A stretch of 64,000 nucleotides of DNA from a virus: IMG/VR virus record IMGVR_UViG_3300035179_000003, positions 1-64,000 of that record; one strand, written 5' to 3'. A program made the translations under genes and the position numbers. Under the pieces are notes generated by a model that made no database searches, was not told the DNA's origin, and saw only the letters and a program-made list of their open reading frames with translations. Below, piece after piece: positions 9,606-19,286 of this stretch (its first letter is position 1; every line of letters starts with the position of its first letter).

Positions 9606-9794
9606 ATGGCATTAAAAAGGGTTTGTGATTTTTGTAATAAACAAATTATTAATATAGAAAAAACCATTTTTATATATAAAAAAAAGAAATTCAGAGTTGC
9701 CATTCTTAAAATTAATATTCAAAATGGTTTACGTTGGAGAGAAGCTGATATATGTGAAAAGTGTTTTAATAAACATGTAAAAGGAAGATTATGA
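9606..9794 (+). CDS. Small zinc-finger protein
   Basis: CDFC...DICEKC pairs. Confidence 0.65.
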   Translation: MALKRVCDFCNKQIINIEKTIFIYKKKKFRVAILKINIQNGLRWREADICEKCFNKHVKGRL

Positions 9795-10807: not shown

Positions 10808-12412
10808 ATGAATGATGATTTTGCGCCTTATATCATTATAGAACAATGGATGACAGATGCTTTTCCGGATTTGGAGTATATCCATTATCCAATAGCTAAT
10901 AATATGGTTGTTATAATTAATGATAATGGGTGGGAAAAAATTGTTGATAAATCTGATATAGAAAAATGTGTTCTATTTGATTCTAATATTGAAGGAGTAA
11001 AAGTTGGAGTTACTTCATTGTGGGCTAATACTACATTGTTGGAATCTATTGTAACAGAAAATGTTAGATTATCACCAACGTATTCTGATATTTTTACTTG
11101 TATTATATCAAATAATATAAGTATTAAACAAAGAATAGAGATCTTACAATCAGAAGACAAGCCAAAAGAAGAGTTTATTTTACCAATTGAAAAAAACCCT
11201 TTATTTCTTAGTCCTTATTTAACTTTTGGAGAAGACGAGGTATTTATTGATACTTGTTGTAATGTCGAAGATCTTGAAATTCCATTATTACAATTTTCAA
11301 GAAAGTTAAAGAGAAAGATTATTGTGTTATATACATATAATTATAAAATAAATGATTTTGATGTATTTAATTCTGCATTCAAAATTTTTATAATTAGTGA
11401 ACACAACAGAGATTTTGTACCAGTACAAATAAATGGCGGTGCAATTTCATGTCTTGGATTTTTAACCAATTCTATTTATATTCCAAAACAAATGGATAAA
11501 AATACTTCGCCATACATAAAATATGATGTAATATTAAAGGATTCATTTACTAATGTAATCTTTAGTATCGGTAATAATGATGAAATGTATATCGTTATTC
11601 CGGGAGCTTCTGCTTTAGTTACTTTTATAAAAGAAATATGTAAAAGGTATAAATCTTCTGAAAATTTTGAAGAATTGGATAAAATGTATTATGAAAAATA
11701 TTTAAAAGAGAATAAAAAAAACTATATCAACATGGCAAAACAATCATCCATTCAAATAAAAAATGAATTGGTGGTAAAAGCGCAGTCGCTTCAAAATGAA
11801 TATGAGATATTGTTAAACAGTGTTTTGGAAAAAGCGAAAATGTTTAATGTAGTTCAAACTCAAATTAAGTATTTCGATCAACAAAGGTTTGATGAAGAAC
11901 AGGAAAAAAAATTTTCAGAAAATTATGATATGACTGAAGCATTAGACCGTGTTCATTCGATAATAATTAATCCAAACGGTATTGTTACTGTGAACACGAA
12001 AGAAATTTATGTAAAAGACGAACGCACCGGTAAATGGCATGAAATAGGAAAATTTTCAATTGTCATAGGTATGATTTCACAAAATTATGATATTCGTACA
12101 ACTGTGAGAATTAGAAATATTAAATATGGAGATTTGATTGCTGGTTATCAGGCGCCGCATGTCTTTAGTAATTGTTTAATGTGTCATGGCAATATAGAAG
12201 CAAGTATTGCCGATGCGTATAAAAATAAAAATCTATATGAATTGGTTTTATTAATCATACAATTTTTACAACATGCCAATACCGGGGATAGGGCGGGTGA
12301 GAATATCGACAAATGGCCTGAAGTGCCAGAAGATGTTGTGAAAGGGTTTCATAAAGTAGAAATTAAAAAAATAGATATTCCAATTTTTATCAAAAAGGAG
12401 GAAAAGTCTTGA
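10808..12412 (+). CDS. Coiled-coil protein with C-terminal prokaryotic E2 (UBC-fold)-like domain, paralog 1
   Basis: YQAPHVFSNCLMCHGN resembles the E2 HPN/HPH..C active-site flap; followed by LIIQFL..N..D.AG; in operon with JAB, E1 and Ubl. Confidence 0.7.
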   Translation: MNDDFAPYIIIEQWMTDAFPDLEYIHYPIANNMVVIINDNGWEKIVDKSDIEKCVLFDSNIEGVKVGVTSLWANTTLLESIVTENVRLSPTYSDIFTCIISNNISIKQRIEILQSEDKPKEEFILPIEKNPLFLSPYLTFGEDEVFIDTCCNVEDLEIPLLQFSRKLKRKIIVLYTYNYKINDFDVFNSAFKIFIISEHNRDFVPVQINGGAISCLGFLTNSIYIPKQMDKNTSPYIKYDVILKDSFTNVIFSIGNNDEMYIVIPGASALVTFIKEICKRYKSSENFEELDKMYYEKYLKENKKNYINMAKQSSIQIKNELVVKAQSLQNEYEILLNSVLEKAKMFNVVQTQIKYFDQQRFDEEQEKKFSENYDMTEALDRVHSIIINPNGIVTVNTKEIYVKDERTGKWHEIGKFSIVIGMISQNYDIRTTVRIRNIKYGDLIAGYQAPHVFSNCLMCHGNIEASIADAYKNKNLYELVLLIIQFLQHANTGDRAGENIDKWPEVPEDVVKGFHKVEIKKIDIPIFIKKEEKS

Positions 12413-13383
12413 AAATAATAATAAGACCTAGAGTTTTTGAATGGTATCCGAAACTTTTATTTTATGGTTTTGTTCCGGATGAATTTTTTACATCCGGTGG
12501 TCGTATATCAAGATCGATAGATGACATTGTTGTTTTTCAACATGAATCTGAAGAACAATTAAGAAGAATTTTAAATAATGATTCGATTTTTAATGAGCTA
12601 ATTGTAACTACAATTGATGACGGTTTTGTAGTTAATTTGCCACCAGCTAATCTTGTAGAAACGACAAGTCCCGTAACAGACGCTGATATCGTACCGGGAT
12701 TTGATGAAACGGAAGATGAAGATAATAGAATTATTGAAGTTAACCCTGATTATAGACTTCCTAAAAAAGAGGAAGAAAGCAATTATGCTATAAAAATAGC
12801 ACAATGTTTAAATAATTCCACTACATCTGAAGCAAGAGATTTAACGTCATTAATGGATCGATTTCATACATTAACAAATGAATTAATTAAAATTAAAAGA
12901 TTAATTGATTCAAAAGGTAAAGTGCTTGATTGTGATCCTGATGTTAAAAAGATCATAGAATCGATAATATATTTAAAAAAACATCCGAAAATTGATGATG
13001 TTTTTCTTTCCCCAGAGTTCAATATTAATATCGTCACAAAAGTTATAAAAGTAGAAGTTGAACATGTTATACGAATTTTGGGAAAGATGCTTATTATCCT
13101 TCCGTTGAAATTGTTCGTAGGGAGTAACCCCAATTTAAGTGGTATAAGAATTATTAATTTAACTCATATCATTTCTTATAATAGCACTCTGTATCAGGCT
13201 CCGCATGTTTATGAAAATGAGGGGTCTTGTTTTGGCGGAGCAACTTGTGATTTAATTATAAATGCAATTGCAGCCCGCGACGTAACTTTAACATTTTCGG
13301 CAATTTTACAGTTCTTAGAACTGCCGAATATTGAAGATGAAGCAGGCGAATGTGCGTTACTTTTGCCGGAGGCAAATAAATGA
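12409..13383 (+). CDS. Coiled-coil protein with C-terminal E2-like domain, paralog 2
   Basis: YQAPHVYENEGSCFGG...AILQFL..PN.EDEAG matches paralog 1 motif for motif; TTGA overlap. Confidence 0.7.
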   Translation: MKIIIRPRVFEWYPKLLFYGFVPDEFFTSGGRISRSIDDIVVFQHESEEQLRRILNNDSIFNELIVTTIDDGFVVNLPPANLVETTSPVTDADIVPGFDETEDEDNRIIEVNPDYRLPKKEEESNYAIKIAQCLNNSTTSEARDLTSLMDRFHTLTNELIKIKRLIDSKGKVLDCDPDVKKIIESIIYLKKHPKIDDVFLSPEFNINIVTKVIKVEVEHVIRILGKMLIILPLKLFVGSNPNLSGIRIINLTHIISYNSTLYQAPHVYENEGSCFGGATCDLIINAIAARDVTLTFSAILQFLELPNIEDEAGECALLLPEANK

Positions 13384-14228
13384 AATTACGAGTAATGAAT
13401 ACTAATATAGTATTCGCCCCTAAAATTATTATTGACCAAAAAGCAAAAGAGTGGATGAAAGCCATTGTCGATCTTCATGAAACTGAAGTTGGATTTTATG
13501 CATTGTCTACGATGAGGGATGACAATACCTTTTTTATTAGCGACGTGTATTACCCGAAACACAATATCGCTAATTTGGGACATTGCGAAATAGCAGATAG
13601 TGGTCAATCCGATTTCATGAGATTGCTTATAAGTCAAGGTAGAGAAGACGATGTTGGTAAGATTAAAGTATGGGGCCATTCTCATGTTGATATGGGAATA
13701 AGCCCAAGTAAAGATGACCATGATCAAGCCATGGAATCGGCACGAGACAATAAGGATTATTTTATCAGATTAATCACAAATAAGAAACATCAGATAGGCG
13801 TTTCTTTTTATGACTATAAAAAAAATCTGATTTATGATGAAGTAGGTTGGGAAATAGAAGTATCAAATGCCGAATCAATTTATGAAACCAAGGTAAATCA
13901 GATAATAAATATTATTACAGCAAATCAAAATTATACACAGGCGATAAAAGAAATTCGTCTGGTATTGGATAATAATGTTTTTTATCAAGAGGCATGTGAA
14001 TATATAAAATTAAAAAAAGAAGAAAACATGCCACAGCCTACATTTAATGGACAAACAAATTTGTTTGCGCATTCATATGATTTCGGTTTTAAAAATGATC
14101 AAAGATTTTTTTCAAAAAAAAACAAAACAAGTTTTACGCCATTTTTCGAAAGAGATCCCGTCGATCAGATGGGATTAGAAAACCTATTGGATGAAGATAG
14201 TTATTACGGAAAGGGGTTTTACGAATAA
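13380..14228 (+). CDS. JAB/MPN+ (JAMM) metallopeptidase, putative deubiquitinase/Ubl maturase
   Basis: EVGFY glutamate plus WGHSHVDMGISPSKDD = H-x-H-x7-S-x2-D zinc motif. Confidence 0.9.
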   Translation: MKLRVMNTNIVFAPKIIIDQKAKEWMKAIVDLHETEVGFYALSTMRDDNTFFISDVYYPKHNIANLGHCEIADSGQSDFMRLLISQGREDDVGKIKVWGHSHVDMGISPSKDDHDQAMESARDNKDYFIRLITNKKHQIGVSFYDYKKNLIYDEVGWEIEVSNAESIYETKVNQIINIITANQNYTQAIKEIRLVLDNNVFYQEACEYIKLKKEENMPQPTFNGQTNLFAHSYDFGFKNDQRFFSKKNKTSFTPFFERDPVDQMGLENLLDEDSYYGKGFYE

Positions 14229-14956
14229 TGGATTACAATCGTCAAAACAAATTATTGAATGTTGCAAAAATAGGTAAAAAAAGTATCACTTTAATAGGAG
14301 CCGGGGCTGTTGGATCACACGTTGCCTTGTTATTGACCCAAATGGGATGGGGCGATCAAAGCAGTGACCAAGGAGTTATTAACGTATTTGACTTTGATAA
14401 AGTCGAAGAGCATAATCTGGCAAATCAGATATATGATCCGTCTCATGTCGGAAAATTCAAGGTTGATGCTCTTAATGAGGCAATTAAGAAAAAGTGTGGT
14501 TTCGGAATTAATACTTTTAATGAAAAAGTAATTAATCAAACCGCGAACGTTCAATCTACCTATGTTTTTCTTATGGTGGATACCATGGCAGGCAGAAAAG
14601 AAATTTTTGATAACTGCCTGCGTTATAGTTTCGATACCCAGTTGGTAATCGAGACTCGAATGGGGTTAGATGAAGGTCGAATTTATGCATTCAATCCCGC
14701 AAATAGGGAGCATTTACGTGAGTGGGAATTTTCCTTGTATTCAGATCAAGAGGCCGAATTATCATTATGCGGGACCAGTATGGCTATAGCGATGACCGCT
14801 TGGTATATTGCAAGTCTTGCAGTTTCCAGAGTAATTCAGCATTTTAATGATAAAAAAGATTTATGGAATGAATTTCACTTTTGTTTATGTCCCGAATCAT
14901 ATTATTATAGAAGGTTTAGTGAAAAACCTTTTATGTTACAACAATTTAATTCATAA
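14228..14956 (+). CDS. ThiF/MoeB/E1-family adenylyltransferase (Ubl-activating enzyme)
   Basis: RQ, GAGAVGS, DFDKVEEHNLANQ, K, VDTM..R motifs; candidate catalytic Cys in LSLCG. Confidence 0.93.
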   Translation: MDYNRQNKLLNVAKIGKKSITLIGAGAVGSHVALLLTQMGWGDQSSDQGVINVFDFDKVEEHNLANQIYDPSHVGKFKVDALNEAIKKKCGFGINTFNEKVINQTANVQSTYVFLMVDTMAGRKEIFDNCLRYSFDTQLVIETRMGLDEGRIYAFNPANREHLREWEFSLYSDQEAELSLCGTSMAIAMTAWYIASLAVSRVIQHFNDKKDLWNEFHFCLCPESYYYRRFSEKPFMLQQFNS

Positions 14957-14968
14957 GGAGTAATAAAG

Positions 14969-15424
14969 ATGATTCTGGTAAAATTGATGAAGTTGGGAAT
15001 TCCGGTTGTTGAATACAGCATGGAAGATGGAGCAACCGTTTCCGATTTATTTGAAACGGCTGATGAGGAGTTCAAGGGAACAGTAACCATTCTTGACCGT
15101 CCCGTAGATGAAGACACGGTTCTTCGTGATGGTGACCGGGTTTTCGTATCGGCCAAAGTAAAAGGCAGCACCCCTCTTGAGGTAAAACTCTTGAGGGTCG
15201 GCGGCGCTACAACCAAAACCTATGTAGTGGAATCTGGGACAAGTCTCGGGGATTTCATTAATGGGTTGGAAGACAAGGATGATTACATAGACGCAAGCGG
15301 TAATCACAAGTGGACCTACACCGATGTTGTGGGCGTCGTATTGAGCCTTGGATATACATTCTCTGGCACTCCGGAACAGGTAATACGCATTCTCCTGTCC
15401 AAAAAGACCAAGGGAAGCAGGTAA
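14969..15424 (+). CDS. Tandem two-domain ubiquitin-like (beta-grasp) protein
   Basis: Domain 1 VKL..G...EY.MEDGATVSDL...LRDGDRVFV..KVKGS; domain 2 VKLL.VG....Y.VESGTSLGDF...ILLSKKTKGSR; strong TAAGGAG RBS; adjacent to E1. Confidence 0.85.
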   Translation: MILVKLMKLGIPVVEYSMEDGATVSDLFETADEEFKGTVTILDRPVDEDTVLRDGDRVFVSAKVKGSTPLEVKLLRVGGATTKTYVVESGTSLGDFINGLEDKDDYIDASGNHKWTYTDVVGVVLSLGYTFSGTPEQVIRILLSKKTKGSR

Positions 15425-15532: not shown

Positions 15533-17566
15533 TCAAATGCCAGCTGTTGGAGATCGCGGGGGCAATTGCTCTGGTAAAGATTGTGATTGTGATTCAATAG
15601 GTTCGGTTTCTACAACCTGATCTTGCTCTGTTGTAACCGGTTGTTGTGTTTCTGGATCTATTGGTACTATCTGCGGAATTCCTGCTAATAAATCAGCTTC
15701 TATCATTTGTAATTCTTTGAGATTTTTATAGACTTCTTGATAAGTATGTGGCATTGATTTGCTCATAATAAACATTCTTAATGTAAATTCTTCACGACTA
15801 AGACGGGATAGCGTGGCAAATCTTTGTGTAAGCATCATTATGATTTGCTGAACAGTAAATTGTTGAACTCCACCCATTTCCTCACTAAGTTTTGATCCAT
15901 CTTCCTGTGTTTTATTAATCGACGATTTATTATGGCGTTCTCTGGATTCCTGTTCGGCGGAATACATTTTATTATTGAATTCAACCTGAGCATCGGCGTT
16001 GAATCTCTGTTGTATTATACCCGCTTTACCACCTGCCGATGCCTCGCCTTCCAATTCTTCAATTCTTAATTCAATCGATTGACTCGTTTCTTCCATTATA
16101 TTTTTAAACTCAGTTTCCGGATCCATATCCAGTTCTTGTATTGCCGTCGTTCTTGATACGACGCGCTGTGATGGTGTTCCGGAAGAAGCCTGCAGGAGCA
16201 TACCTTTTCTTTGTATATCATCAGCCATTTTGAATGGCGACATTTTAATATCGATTTCAGGAATATTAAAATAAATCGCCAAATGATTTTTTACCCAATC
16301 TATCAATTCATGCATACTGGTTCGATGATTGATAAATCTATTTTCAACAATTCTGAGAGAAACATTGCTCCCCGACCATGATGCGCCACCCCTTATAATT
16401 TCAGGTATTACGCCCATGCCGGTAATAATTCCATCTTCGGTCTGTTTTATTTCAGGAGTAGTCATTAATAATCTGGCTTCTCCGCTGAAGGTCTGAAAAC
16501 CAACCGGTAACGGCATGATGGATATATGGTTAGGATCTACCTTCCATTTTCTAAGCTCTTCTTCAATTTTCTGTCTCCAACTGGTTAAATTAATAGTGGC
16601 ATGGGGAGAAACATCACCTGTTCCCTGTGGAAATATAATTCTCAATGGAACGATATGATCGAGCGAAATCATTTCGTTTCCCTTTTTCAGAATTTTAAGA
16701 TGAAACACGTCTTTTAAAACAGGCAATACCGTCGGAATCCCCCATCCACGTTCAGATGGATAAAAGTATTGCGGTCCGGGTTGTTTAAAATAAAAAACAT
16801 TATCATTTTTTAATTTTAATTGTTTGTTCTGTTTTACAGCGTCTAAAATTTCAATACGCAAGGAGTTGACTATATCAAGATCGCCCTTTTTAACAGCCTC
16901 TACGAGAAACGGGGGTATCTGATAATAAAAAAAATGTTCATTTGTTATATTATTATATTTAATTTCAATAAACAGAAGATCCCATAAAATAATACTTAAT
17001 TTATCTGTTTCTTTAGTCTGCATGTCGCTGATTTCAAAATCGGTTAATGATCCACAGGATGAGCATTTTCCTTTATATATATAATTTTTATATTCAAGAT
17101 CAGTCTCTGATTCGACAGTATTTATAGTGTTACATTTTTTACATGTTAATAATCTCTTAAATGGAAAATGTATGGAAATAAGGCTGGATCCATATGCATG
17201 ATAATCCATTCCTATTTGATGCATGACTTTGATGAATTTTAATTTTTTCTCAAAAATATCTTTCCATTTATCAACCGTTTTATCGCCTTCGATAAATGAT
17301 TTTTTTTGATCGGTAAATTTGAGCGAAGTAATGGGGTATTCGGACATTCGTGCAATACATTGATATACAAGCGGATCAGAAAGAATACTGGAGGCTATAA
17401 ACCGGAACATACCTTTAATTGTTTTAGGTATGAATGTATTGGTCATATCTAGGAACGGGGAATCGTATTTAATAGACGATCGGGTGAAAGAAACTTTAGT
17501 TTCCCCACCGCCCCCTGGGACACCACTCGGACTCAATACGTTTCCAGCTAAGCCTTCTGCTGCCAT
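15533..17566 (-). CDS. Putative portal protein with zinc-ribbon insertion
   Basis: Size, DYHAYGSSLISI, GWGIP, acidic Q/P-rich tail and position in the head block are portal-like; CKKC/CSSC insert. Confidence 0.65.
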   Translation of the reverse strand: MAAEGLAGNVLSPSGVPGGGGETKVSFTRSSIKYDSPFLDMTNTFIPKTIKGMFRFIASSILSDPLVYQCIARMSEYPITSLKFTDQKKSFIEGDKTVDKWKDIFEKKLKFIKVMHQIGMDYHAYGSSLISIHFPFKRLLTCKKCNTINTVESETDLEYKNYIYKGKCSSCGSLTDFEISDMQTKETDKLSIILWDLLFIEIKYNNITNEHFFYYQIPPFLVEAVKKGDLDIVNSLRIEILDAVKQNKQLKLKNDNVFYFKQPGPQYFYPSERGWGIPTVLPVLKDVFHLKILKKGNEMISLDHIVPLRIIFPQGTGDVSPHATINLTSWRQKIEEELRKWKVDPNHISIMPLPVGFQTFSGEARLLMTTPEIKQTEDGIITGMGVIPEIIRGGASWSGSNVSLRIVENRFINHRTSMHELIDWVKNHLAIYFNIPEIDIKMSPFKMADDIQRKGMLLQASSGTPSQRVVSRTTAIQELDMDPETEFKNIMEETSQSIELRIEELEGEASAGGKAGIIQQRFNADAQVEFNNKMYSAEQESRERHNKSSINKTQEDGSKLSEEMGGVQQFTVQQIIMMLTQRFATLSRLSREEFTLRMFIMSKSMPHTYQEVYKNLKELQMIEADLLAGIPQIVPIDPETQQPVTTEQDQVVETEPIESQSQSLPEQLPPRSPTAGI

Positions 17567-17861: not shown

Positions 17862-19028
17862 TTATGTTAAATAAATTGAACCTGTATGAAATATAGTGGT
17901 AATTTTTTTTATTCCAAAATTTCCATCACTACAACAAACAGTTTTTCCATATGTTGAACACCCTTTAACAATATGTATTTTTCTTTTTATAAATACAAAA
18001 TCACCAGGCTGTATTGAATATCTTTGTTTACGGATAGATGGCTTAAAACCCTTTCTATTCAACTGCAAAACCCTATTATTTCTATGTTTCTGCTTAAATA
18101 TAATTGGAGCCACTTTTCTCTGTTCGTTTCCACCAGCTATTACAAAAGCATCGTTATAATGGCTTTTTTCTAACCTCAAAATATTTCTTTTAACAAAAGT
18201 CTCATTTCCATAAATTAACTTACAATTTGATAAAATATTTCTGAATTTATTCCTTATTATACTCATAAATGTTGCATCTTTGTAAACCTTATTCTTTTTT
18301 AACACATCATACAACTTGTTCTTATGCAATTTCTTATGACATCTCTCATGCAACAAAGCCAAATTCTTCTCCCGGTCTATTCCACCGTTACTCCTCGATA
18401 TAATGTGGTGAATATGAAAACTGTTACCTTTTGAAAACTCTTTACCGCATAACTGACATCTTCCCTGCTCCCGGAACATTAAAAAACTTCTCATGTTTTG
18501 ATATTCAAACAACGATCCTTGTTGATATTGTATTCCTGCTATATCTGGATTCTCTATTTTCTGAATATCAAAATTACCTACTTCAATTACAACATTCTTA
18601 ATTGGTAATAGTTTTTTTAGCTTGTTAATCAAGGTTATGTGGGTGTTGAATCTTCTCTGTGTTGAAGGTGGTAAATAACCAATAGCTGTTTTTCTATTGT
18701 TAAATCTTGGCTTTCTATACCACAATCTACTCCTTCTACCCCTTCGATACATTCTCTTTTCTATAAGTCTCTCAGATGTCCTTTGATCCAAAAGAAGCGT
18801 TCCTGCTACTATTTCTTTTTTATCAGTTATTGCTGAAAAACCTATATTCTTAAAACCGCTGTCTATTCCCAAAGAACAATCTTGAACCTGATTCTCACAC
18901 TCAAAATTCAATTTAATAACAAATGGATTCTGCTTTACAACATGCGCTTTTCCTCCTTCTAAAAGATGCCTTGCCTTTGTACTTGTGCATGGCATTAAAG
19001 GTTTTCCATTAATTGACAATACAAACAC
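17862..19028 (-). CDS. iscB: RNA-guided endonuclease IscB
   Basis: VFVL...GKPLMPC (PLMP), RuvC-I GIDSG, RRGRR bridge helix, RuvC-II IEVG.FD, HNH with CQLC..HH..N..H, RuvC-III HYNDA; start set at GTG 19028, though the frame is open to ATG 19202. Confidence 0.93.
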   Translation of the reverse strand: MFVLSINGKPLMPCTSTKARHLLEGGKAHVVKQNPFVIKLNFECENQVQDCSLGIDSGFKNIGFSAITDKKEIVAGTLLLDQRTSERLIEKRMYRRGRRSRLWYRKPRFNNRKTAIGYLPPSTQRRFNTHITLINKLKKLLPIKNVVIEVGNFDIQKIENPDIAGIQYQQGSLFEYQNMRSFLMFREQGRCQLCGKEFSKGNSFHIHHIISRSNGGIDREKNLALLHERCHKKLHKNKLYDVLKKNKVYKDATFMSIIRNKFRNILSNCKLIYGNETFVKRNILRLEKSHYNDAFVIAGGNEQRKVAPIIFKQKHRNNRVLQLNRKGFKPSIRKQRYSIQPGDFVFIKRKIHIVKGCSTYGKTVCCSDGNFGIKKITTIFHTGSIYLT

Positions 19029-19286
19029 AATGCTTTTAAAGCCGGGTGCTTGTTCCCGTTGATCCACTTCGAGATTGTTTAAAGTCCGTACTTTATCCTG
19101 TACACTGACTCTTTCAAGTCTGTTTAATACAGGATTTACAGAGCAAGGAACTAGTGGAGTATTCCTTGGTGTGTTCTTAAACTTTACTTTAAACTGCTGC
19201 ATAGATAAACAACCTAAGCCCTCTAATCAACTCTTACGTTGAATCTCACGATTCAAGCTCCGGCCCTTGTGGCCGGAGTAGTTGAC
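19029..19286 (-). ncRNA. Predicted omega-RNA scaffold of IscB
   Basis: Lies between element left end and PLMP start; begins GTCAACTA-CTCCGGCC-ACAAG-GGCCGGAG-CTTGAATCGTGAGATTCAA (consecutive hairpins). Confidence 0.75.

Follow-up and report, generated by a model that had tools for sequence, protein, structure and literature searches.

A phage gene cassette opening with two paralogous, putative E2-type carriers of an unnamed UBC-fold family

Conjugation of ubiquitin-like proteins (Ubls) in prokaryotes has so far been documented experimentally as a weapon of bacteria against phages, in type II CBASS (cyclic oligonucleotide-based antiphage signalling systems) and in Bil, Bub being assigned to the same group by context. 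The Ubl of Bil can have two beta-grasp domains. Among eukaryotic enzymes, UBE2O and BIRC6 are hybrids of a ubiquitin-conjugating enzyme (E2) and a ubiquitin ligase (E3): the UBC core is part of a larger protein, other domains bind the substrates, and no separate E3 is needed. For Bil, specificity has been proposed to sit in the E2 itself, namely in a disordered loop of BilB (PMC10557695). A cassette of five genes, encoding candidate components of a Ubl pathway, is described here in the IMG/VR virus record IMGVR_UViG_3300035179_000003. The window, that is the whole stretch of DNA analysed (64,000 nucleotides), corresponds to the first 64 kb of this 80-kb record, which has a CheckV completeness of about 44%. 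The genes are tightly packed open reading frames (ORFs) of the + strand, are found at the end of a gene run, and follow the order E2a-E2b-JAB-E1-diUbl, where E1 denotes the Ubl-activating enzyme.

The two ORFs opening the cassette, E2a (P0001) and E2b (P0002), had been noticed in a preliminary description made from the sequence alone, and exist as described there. They are paralogues, and hold a C-terminal module in which a His and a Cys are conserved. Structure models and sequence conservation support the view that both are putative E2-type carriers belonging to a previously unnamed family of UBC-fold proteins. The best explanation of the data, which is given as a whole a probability of about 0.6, is that the two carriers are paired and open a translationally coupled phage operon for protein tagging, which would work by the mechanism outlined below. 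The genes of the cassette are located as follows.

10808-12412, + strand: E2a (P0001), 534 aa; ATG start, AGGAGG ribosome-binding site
12409-13383, + strand: E2b (P0002), 324 aa; TTG start, AAGGAGG 6-7 nt upstream
13380-14228, + strand: JAB/MPN+ metallopeptidase, 282 aa, assigned by its motif
14228-14956, + strand: minimal E1, ThiF-type adenylation domain, 242 aa, assigned by Pfam ThiF
14969-15424, + strand: tandem di-Ubl, 151 aa, a candidate assigned by alignment

The first four genes overlap by 4, 4 and 1 nt, the first overlap being formed by the stop of E2a and the start of E2b. Shine-Dalgarno sequences precede E2a, E2b and the di-Ubl gene. The cassette lies within the viral record, flanked by replication genes and by a conserved 677-aa gene.

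E2a and E2b were aligned by BLASTP over about 218 residues (P0001 300-506, P0002 120-322) with 25% identity and an E-value of 5e-8. About 200 C-terminal residues are alignable, and no alignment extends over the N-termini; the common C-terminal module joined to different N-termini, put forward in the preliminary description, is therefore real. The motifs quoted there for the module (QAPHV-x6-C-x-G, QFL and D-x-AG) were all found, as was the acidic linker FDETEDEDN of P0002, which falls within residues 82-116, a tract with a predicted local distance difference test (pLDDT) value <50. AlphaFold2 monomer models, built from family alignments, have a mean pLDDT of 88.9 for P0001 and of 85 for P0002 (block means 92-98 at residues 181-320), and the shared module is confident in both (block pLDDT mostly 89-98). 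The following domains are predicted by the models.

E2a, residues 1-115: domain 1
E2a, residues 119-140: disordered loop
E2a, residues 142-283: alpha/beta domain 2
E2a, residues 288-354 and 358-377: helices
E2a, residues about 378-510: UBC-like core, followed by a C-terminal tail with IPIFI
E2b, residues 1-76: small alpha/beta domain
E2b, residues 82-116: disordered acidic linker
E2b, residues 123-190: helices, the long ones before the core being 138-175 and 177-190
E2b, residues about 191-322: UBC-like core

When the P0002 model was compared by Foldseek to the PDB, E2 enzymes ranked first (Ube2S, probability 0.99, E 0.012, about 150 columns). A wide search (VIA), independent of Foldseek, was run against 48,161 chains. 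Among the best 50 matches, nearly all are E2, ubiquitin E2 variant (UEV) or RWD chains, and the few others cover the N-terminal domain only. The alignments to E2, UEV and RWD chains include 100-131 residues and cover almost entire E2 cores. The best matches of the E2b model span its residues 176-322 and nearly the whole target (chain 10-153), the highest scores being those of UbcH10 (Z 7.9, root-mean-square deviation 3.3, 122 aligned residues) and Ube2S (Z 7.6-7.8). UBE2O (Z 5.7-5.8) and chains of bacterial systems, such as CdnG-E2 (Z 6.2), Cap2 (7to3_A, Z 5.7) and a Bub complex chain (9eav_D, Z 5.2), are also found among the matches. The E2a model gives the same picture, as it matches Ube2S with Z 7.5 over residues 361-505 in the wide search, and E2s by Foldseek. 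Both models can be placed in the UBC/E2-fold superfamily, which includes E2, UEV and RWD domains and is characterised by an N-terminal helix, a four-stranded antiparallel meander and C-terminal helices. Because the list of matches is uniform and the whole domain is covered, a UBC-type fold is the clear reading in spite of Z scores in the middle range, and in both proteins the shared module is modelled as a long helix followed by such a fold.

The module defines a large family. A profile made of four modules, searched against 1.84 billion representative proteins, retrieved 2180 clusters at E<=1e-3 and 365 at E<=1e-10, clusters being set at 50% identity. The module is usually C-terminal and is preceded by 0-740 residues, the commonest form being an E2a-type protein of 600-690 aa. 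Sixty members were sampled, and no real Pfam or PHROG family could be assigned to any of them; "hypothetical protein" was the sole source name met. Conservation was monitored in 177 modules, taken from the top representatives and from the loci described below. The Cys is kept in 174, and a His eight residues upstream in 163. The Cys singled out in the preliminary description is, in other words, conserved across homologs. Residues T397, G414, N437, G461, D494 and G497 (E2a numbering) are as constant as the two, and P450, H451, C459, G461, F486, D494, G497 and W503 are invariant or nearly so in the whole family. In the models the stretch P-H-x7-C-x-G sits between the last strand and the next helix, where E2s carry HPN...Cys; a conserved Cys thus follows the last strand, with a HPN-like His before it. 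The codons of the four residues, all of which have been checked, are the following.

12158-12160, + strand: E2a His451 (CAT), putative HPN-like His
12182-12184, + strand: E2a Cys459 (TGT), putative catalytic Cys
13204-13206, + strand: E2b His266
13228-13230, + strand: E2b Cys274

The gene order of the cassette is shared by six viral contigs and by one contig of a metagenome-assembled genome (L003-L009), which all carry the same five genes. The order found in these is polymerase/exonuclease, a 169-aa gene, SNF2 helicase, helix-turn-helix gene, VRR-NUC, E2a, E2b, JAB, E1 and di-Ubl, and the conserved 677-aa gene comes next on the opposite strand. The metagenome-assembled contig (L009, CAZUBH010000002.1, 168 kb) is binned as an uncultured Thermoplasmatales archaeon. 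E2a, E2b, JAB, E1 and di-Ubl are all present in it, its length is close to that of an entire phage of this clade, and the contig probably belongs to a phage and was mis-binned. A phage of more remote kinship (L002, 3787-8907) features two E2-like genes, two JABs and two single-domain Ubls, ending with GGSR and GGR, around one E1. Three distant metagenomic loci with a GC content of 46-59% (L010, L014, L019) have each a JAB, an E1 and a Ubl candidate, that of L010 ending with VKGN. Altogether, JAB and E1 genes are present in 11 of the 13 loci with enough flanking DNA and a detectable Ubl in at least 10, and no other E2 candidate was seen. The E2 pair evolves much faster than its neighbours, since identity between phages is about 50% for E1, the SNF2 helicase and the 677-aa protein, and drops to 35-37% for E2a and 24% for E2b. 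In most related phages E2a is alignable in the C-terminal half only.

The other components of the cassette were assigned by different means. The 282-aa protein has no Pfam match. It is regarded as a JAB/MPN+ peptidase because the JAMM motif H100-S-H102-x7-S110-x2-D113 (codons checked) is invariant in the alignment with the two JABs of L002; orthologues are present in L003-L009. The protein has also a C-terminal extension of about 130 aa (13830-14225), which ends with GFYE here, and with an acidic-aromatic YEEF tail in several L003-L008 orthologues. The E1 matches Pfam ThiF (2.3e-21) and many PADLOC E1-E2 models (down to 2.7e-13), and its Cys181 (14768-14770, codon checked) is conserved in 7 of 7 aligned sequences. 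The 151-aa protein looks like two Ubl domains, each ending with K-x-K-G-S, on the basis of its alignment with the L002 Ubls of 74-75 aa: domain 1 terminates with KVKG66-S and domain 2 with KTKG149-SR. Its orthologues end with VKGN, and some have extensions. The description of P0001 and P0002 as E2-like, already given in the preliminary description, is thus upheld by the UBC-type fold, by the nearly invariant His-x7-Cys, and by an operon which has a JAB, an E1 and a Gly-tailed di-Ubl, and would otherwise have no E2.

The lack of a visible RING or HECT E3 gene, also noted earlier, holds for the cassette and most upstream genes, in which Pfam scans revealed none; the scans were limited to these neighbours, leaving outside the rest of the record and a 62-aa ORF with a CxxC...CxxC zinc-ribbon-like pattern. 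The latter (9606-9794, + strand), found upstream, is separated by three genes from the cassette, and is too small and ligand-poor for a RING. Type II CBASS is not known to have a dedicated E3. Since Bil too is described without one (PMC10557695), a missing E3 would not be, by comparison with these systems, a special trait of the cassette.

Pairing of the two modules is a recurrent feature of the family. What is new is that the two modules are sometimes fused in one chain. This occurs in 6 of about 150 representatives and in L010, i.e. in seven relatives. The L010 fusion aligns with the split E2a (137-611) and then with the split E2b (106-301) of L013, and has therefore a Rosetta-stone relation to the split pair. 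Three modules lack the Cys, all being second modules of fusions (3 of the 7 fused relatives), and the Cys is retained in every unfused protein examined. In a FastTree phylogeny of the modules, phage E2b sequences form a clade of 14 tips devoid of E2a (support 0.915), and E2a sequences a clade of 60 tips devoid of E2b (support 0.80). Within the high-GC group, a clade of exactly seven (0.877) unites the first modules with the split E2a genes. In the tree, the pair of the high-GC group and that of L002 seem to derive from separate duplications, which would point to more than one origin of pairs. The idea that the two proteins act together, advanced in the preliminary description, gains weight from the presence of the pair in every related locus, from the fusion of the modules in seven relatives, and from the end-to-end alignment of one fusion with a split pair. 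The E2-to-E2 relay suggested along with it found no support: loss of the Cys only in the second module of fusions is more like an active E2 flanked by an accessory partner, and since all three losses are of this type, the modules would work as a pair rather than as a relay. A large family, unnamed in databases and nearly always found as a pair or a two-in-one fusion, suggests an unusual tagging machine with two E2s and without a separate E3.

Some observations weigh against an E2-type role of the pair. By the caveat of the wide-search tool itself, Z scores of 7-8 are middling, and the non-catalytic RWD domains of Knl1 score as high as E2s (Z 7.1-7.6). No known sequence model of E2 families (UQ_con, Prok-E2_A to E, BilB and Cap2 E2 of PADLOC) matches the proteins, and ten module-only sequences gave nothing in Pfam even at E<=10. 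The helix begins two residues past the Cys, nearer than in canonical E2s. Two loci with bacterial gene neighbours (L012, L013) host the E2 pair together with an approximately 800-aa protein, and have no E1, JAB or Ubl within 7 kb. The coiled coil that the preliminary description placed before the module stands in part: long helices are predicted by AlphaFold ahead of the core, but the heptad a/d test against shuffled sequences is not significant, the observed value being reached by 564 of 2000 and 133 of 2000 shuffles.

These data may be accommodated by assuming that the modules have a UBC fold but are non-catalytic, RWD- or UEV-like, and serve for helix-plus-RWD dimerisation or as Ubl-binding scaffolds, as the kinetochore RWD proteins do. 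In that case His and Cys would have a structural role, and E1 itself would hand over the Ubl, as happens in SAMP/TtuB-type systems devoid of an E2. The Knl1 domains, which match as well as E2s and have the same layout of a helix followed by the domain, the isolated pairs of L012 and L013, the second modules lacking the Cys and the silence of E2 sequence families all fit this hypothesis. Yet it is unlikely, since 174 of 177 modules, including those of all unfused proteins examined, retain the Cys, which has been lost only beside a Cys-bearing module in the same chain. Furthermore, a His eight residues before the Cys mimics the HPN-Cys spacing, and loci in which JAB and E1 (11 of 13) and a Ubl (at least 10) accompany the pair have no alternative E2 candidate.

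It is improbable that E2a and E2b are instead substrates of the system, their D-x-A-G being exposed by JAB, adenylated by E1 and ligated to targets, in a way comparable to the C-terminus of the CD-NTase handled by Cap2. G497 is 99% conserved, is followed by tails of variable length, and is located 12 residues from the end in E2b; moreover, the minimal E1 (242 aa) has no obvious E2-docking domain. On the other side, the system always comes with a dedicated Ubl that has a K-G tail of its own, and the invariant Cys would be left unexplained. Residues W503, P504 and V506, which come after the Gly, are conserved in turn and fall in a confident part of the model (pLDDT 93-96), and therefore belong to the fold. 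A shared structural metal site, made at a dimer interface by the His and Cys of two protomers, would suit proteins that occur in pairs and conserve one His and one Cys per module, but is very improbable, because the second module of fusions may lose Cys, His or both while the first keeps them, which would destroy a four-ligand site but would be tolerated in a pair made of an active and an accessory module.

The reading of the pair as E2-type carriers leaves a role for the N-termini. In 137 proteins, the N-terminal regions with a length of 80 aa or more could be sorted by BLAST into 50 clusters. The E2a type accounts for 70 regions, a second type for 13 and the P0002 type for 5, all others being singletons or pairs. 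Such diversity fits the idea that these are targeting domains. The suggestion that N-termini are substrate adaptors, made in the preliminary description, is plausible, and these variable, fast-evolving regions are the obvious candidates for the binding of targets or partners. Variable E2 N-termini acting as binding parts would agree with the E2-borne specificity proposed for Bil. The E2a N-terminus consists of two domains, in which moderately conserved residues form no recognisable catalytic set, and an Atlas search with it gave no usable match. A glutamine-amidotransferase-like Cys hydrolase was considered for domain 2 and rejected, as Pdx2 was matched by Foldseek with a probability of only 0.35, and a GH42 domain in the wide search with Z 6.4. 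The Cys of the E2a SCLGF tract was similarly discarded as hydrolase nucleophile, being present in only 44 of the 68 positions that are occupied, with V, L or I elsewhere. The small N-terminal domain of E2b resembles a domain of Nmd3 and eL22 (Z 5.6-6.9). At the other end of the protein, E2a carries the sequence IPIFI (residues 524-528, window 12377-12391). A short hydrophobic motif, (I/L)-P-(I/V)-x-(I/V), is conserved at E2a-type C-termini, 20-40 residues past the UBC-like core, with variants such as IPIHI, LPININV and IPLNISI. It is missing in E2b, and may be a docking peptide.

In the mechanism that is favoured, the JAB peptidase would trim the di-Ubl after its K-G tails (G66, G149). The minimal E1 would adenylate the exposed Gly and then hold the Ubl on Cys181. 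The Ubl would move by transthioesterification to C459 of E2a, to C274 of E2b, or to both, and the E2 would pass it to a target lysine with no separate E3. These four steps are deduced from the genes present, in the light of the established workings of Bil, CBASS and eukaryotic cascades. The two E2 modules probably function jointly, as a hetero-oligomer kept together by the long helices that precede the cores, and the divergent N-terminal domains probably supply the binding of partners or targets. Both partners could be charged in the split form; when the modules are fused, the second can turn into an accessory without the Cys, an arrangement like that of Ubc13-Mms2. As the operon is set in a block of phage replication genes, the targets are probably host or phage proteins inside the infected cell. 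A bolder proposal is possible, albeit doubtful. The cassette would be the founding example of an E3-independent Ubl ligase encoded by a phage and based on two obligately paired E2 modules, split or fused, with the second module of the fusions sometimes Cys-less; rapid swapping of N-termini would direct the tag against host defence proteins or rival phages. This would be a viral counterpart of Bil, based on a new UBC-fold family with >2000 sequence clusters.

Searches with known families and genomes gave little. P0001 and P0002 have no match in Pfam (E<=0.01), NCBIfam and PADLOC, and only one weak match to PHROGs (P0002, E 0.0027). Searches of PDB sequences by phmmer and profiles yielded coiled-coil noise only, and three E2 chains hit at E 2.2-2.6 over 11-12 residues are not evidence. 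A word-based homologue search found two near-identical proteins and nothing else. Prok-E2_D is assigned to 39% of the members of an Atlas neighbour cluster, with a score of 0.80, which is below the reliability line of the tool, and was not found in the record. Neither the cassette, used in blastn, nor a typical member, used in tblastn, matched any of 50,697 GenBank phages. Scanning one genome per species (185,579 species) returned a single match, a 168-kb contig with the full cassette. No description of a phage E2-E2-JAB-E1-Ubl cassette was found in the literature.

Some genes found next to the cassette and its relatives are worth mentioning. The 677-aa protein (15533-17566, - strand) is convergent with the cassette, is about 50% identical across related phages, and has no PHROG match at E<=1e-5. 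A 446-aa protein (17862-19202, - strand) has very strong matches to PHROG HNH endonucleases (1.8e-63). A conserved protein of about 800 aa, for which Pfam has no family, is always located ahead of the E2 pair or fusion in the high-GC branch (L010 4596-6926, L012 2934-5372, L013 4453-6843). The trio of L012 and L013 is found between an aminopeptidase-like gene, identified by eye, and a cation-efflux gene.

A full putative conjugation kit is encoded in the replication block of large uncultured phages, and if it is active, protein tagging would be carried out by phages too. Paired or fused E2s would represent a natural, minimal model of how E2 specificity may be gained without an E3, and also of the origin of E2-UEV-type pairs through duplication. 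As the family comprises 2180 clusters at 50% identity, an annotation would become available for many metagenomic proteins now listed as "hypothetical".

Among known systems, Bil is the closest in gene content. BilABCD (Chambers et al., PMC10557695) similarly has Ubl, E2, JAB-type peptidase and E1 in one operon, without a dedicated E3, a likeness confined to the level of gene content. However, Bil resides in bacterial defence islands and the cassette in a phage record; Bil has one E2, whereas two E2-type genes with a long helix and extra N-terminal domains are found here; and the E1 is minimal (242 aa). Neither the E2s nor the JAB are matched by any PADLOC defence model, including those of BilB and BilC, and BilD matches the E1 weakly (2.2e-4). 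Bub and the operon type 6e of Iyer and Aravind (PMC11601596; PMC1779556) share with the cassette a poly-Ubl (two to three beta-grasp domains), a peptidase and an E1, together with a UBC-fold partner and a second UBC-fold protein. In contrast, the Bub E2-like domain is Cys-less and oxyester-based, and both proteins described here keep the Cys. Moreover, Bub has a peptidase-E1 fusion, and the cassette encodes JAB and E1 in two distinct ORFs. Type II CBASS resembles the cassette for E3-independent conjugation with a JAB antagonist (Cap2/Cap3), for the fold of the Cap2 E2 domain, and for the matches of the E1 to PADLOC E1-E2 models. It differs because Cap2 is an E2-E1 fusion and conjugates the C-terminus of a CD-NTase, not a Ubl; neither the cassette nor the flanks examined showed a CD-NTase.

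Eukaryotic enzymes offer further parallels. In Ubc13-Mms2/Uev1 an active E2 and a Cys-less UEV, which are paralogues with a UBC fold, act as one unit, and the Cys-less second module of 3 of the 7 fused relatives is reminiscent of a UEV; but His and Cys are retained by both paralogues of the window, their sequences are unrelated to those of the eukaryotic pair, and pairing is a deduction here. UBE2O and BIRC6 are eukaryotic single-chain enzymes, not homologous to E2a and E2b outside the core. The cassette fails the sequence tests for Bil, 6e/Bub and CBASS, and is set apart from all these systems by its phage location, by E2 modules that have a Cys and long helices and are paired or fused, and by a minimal E1.

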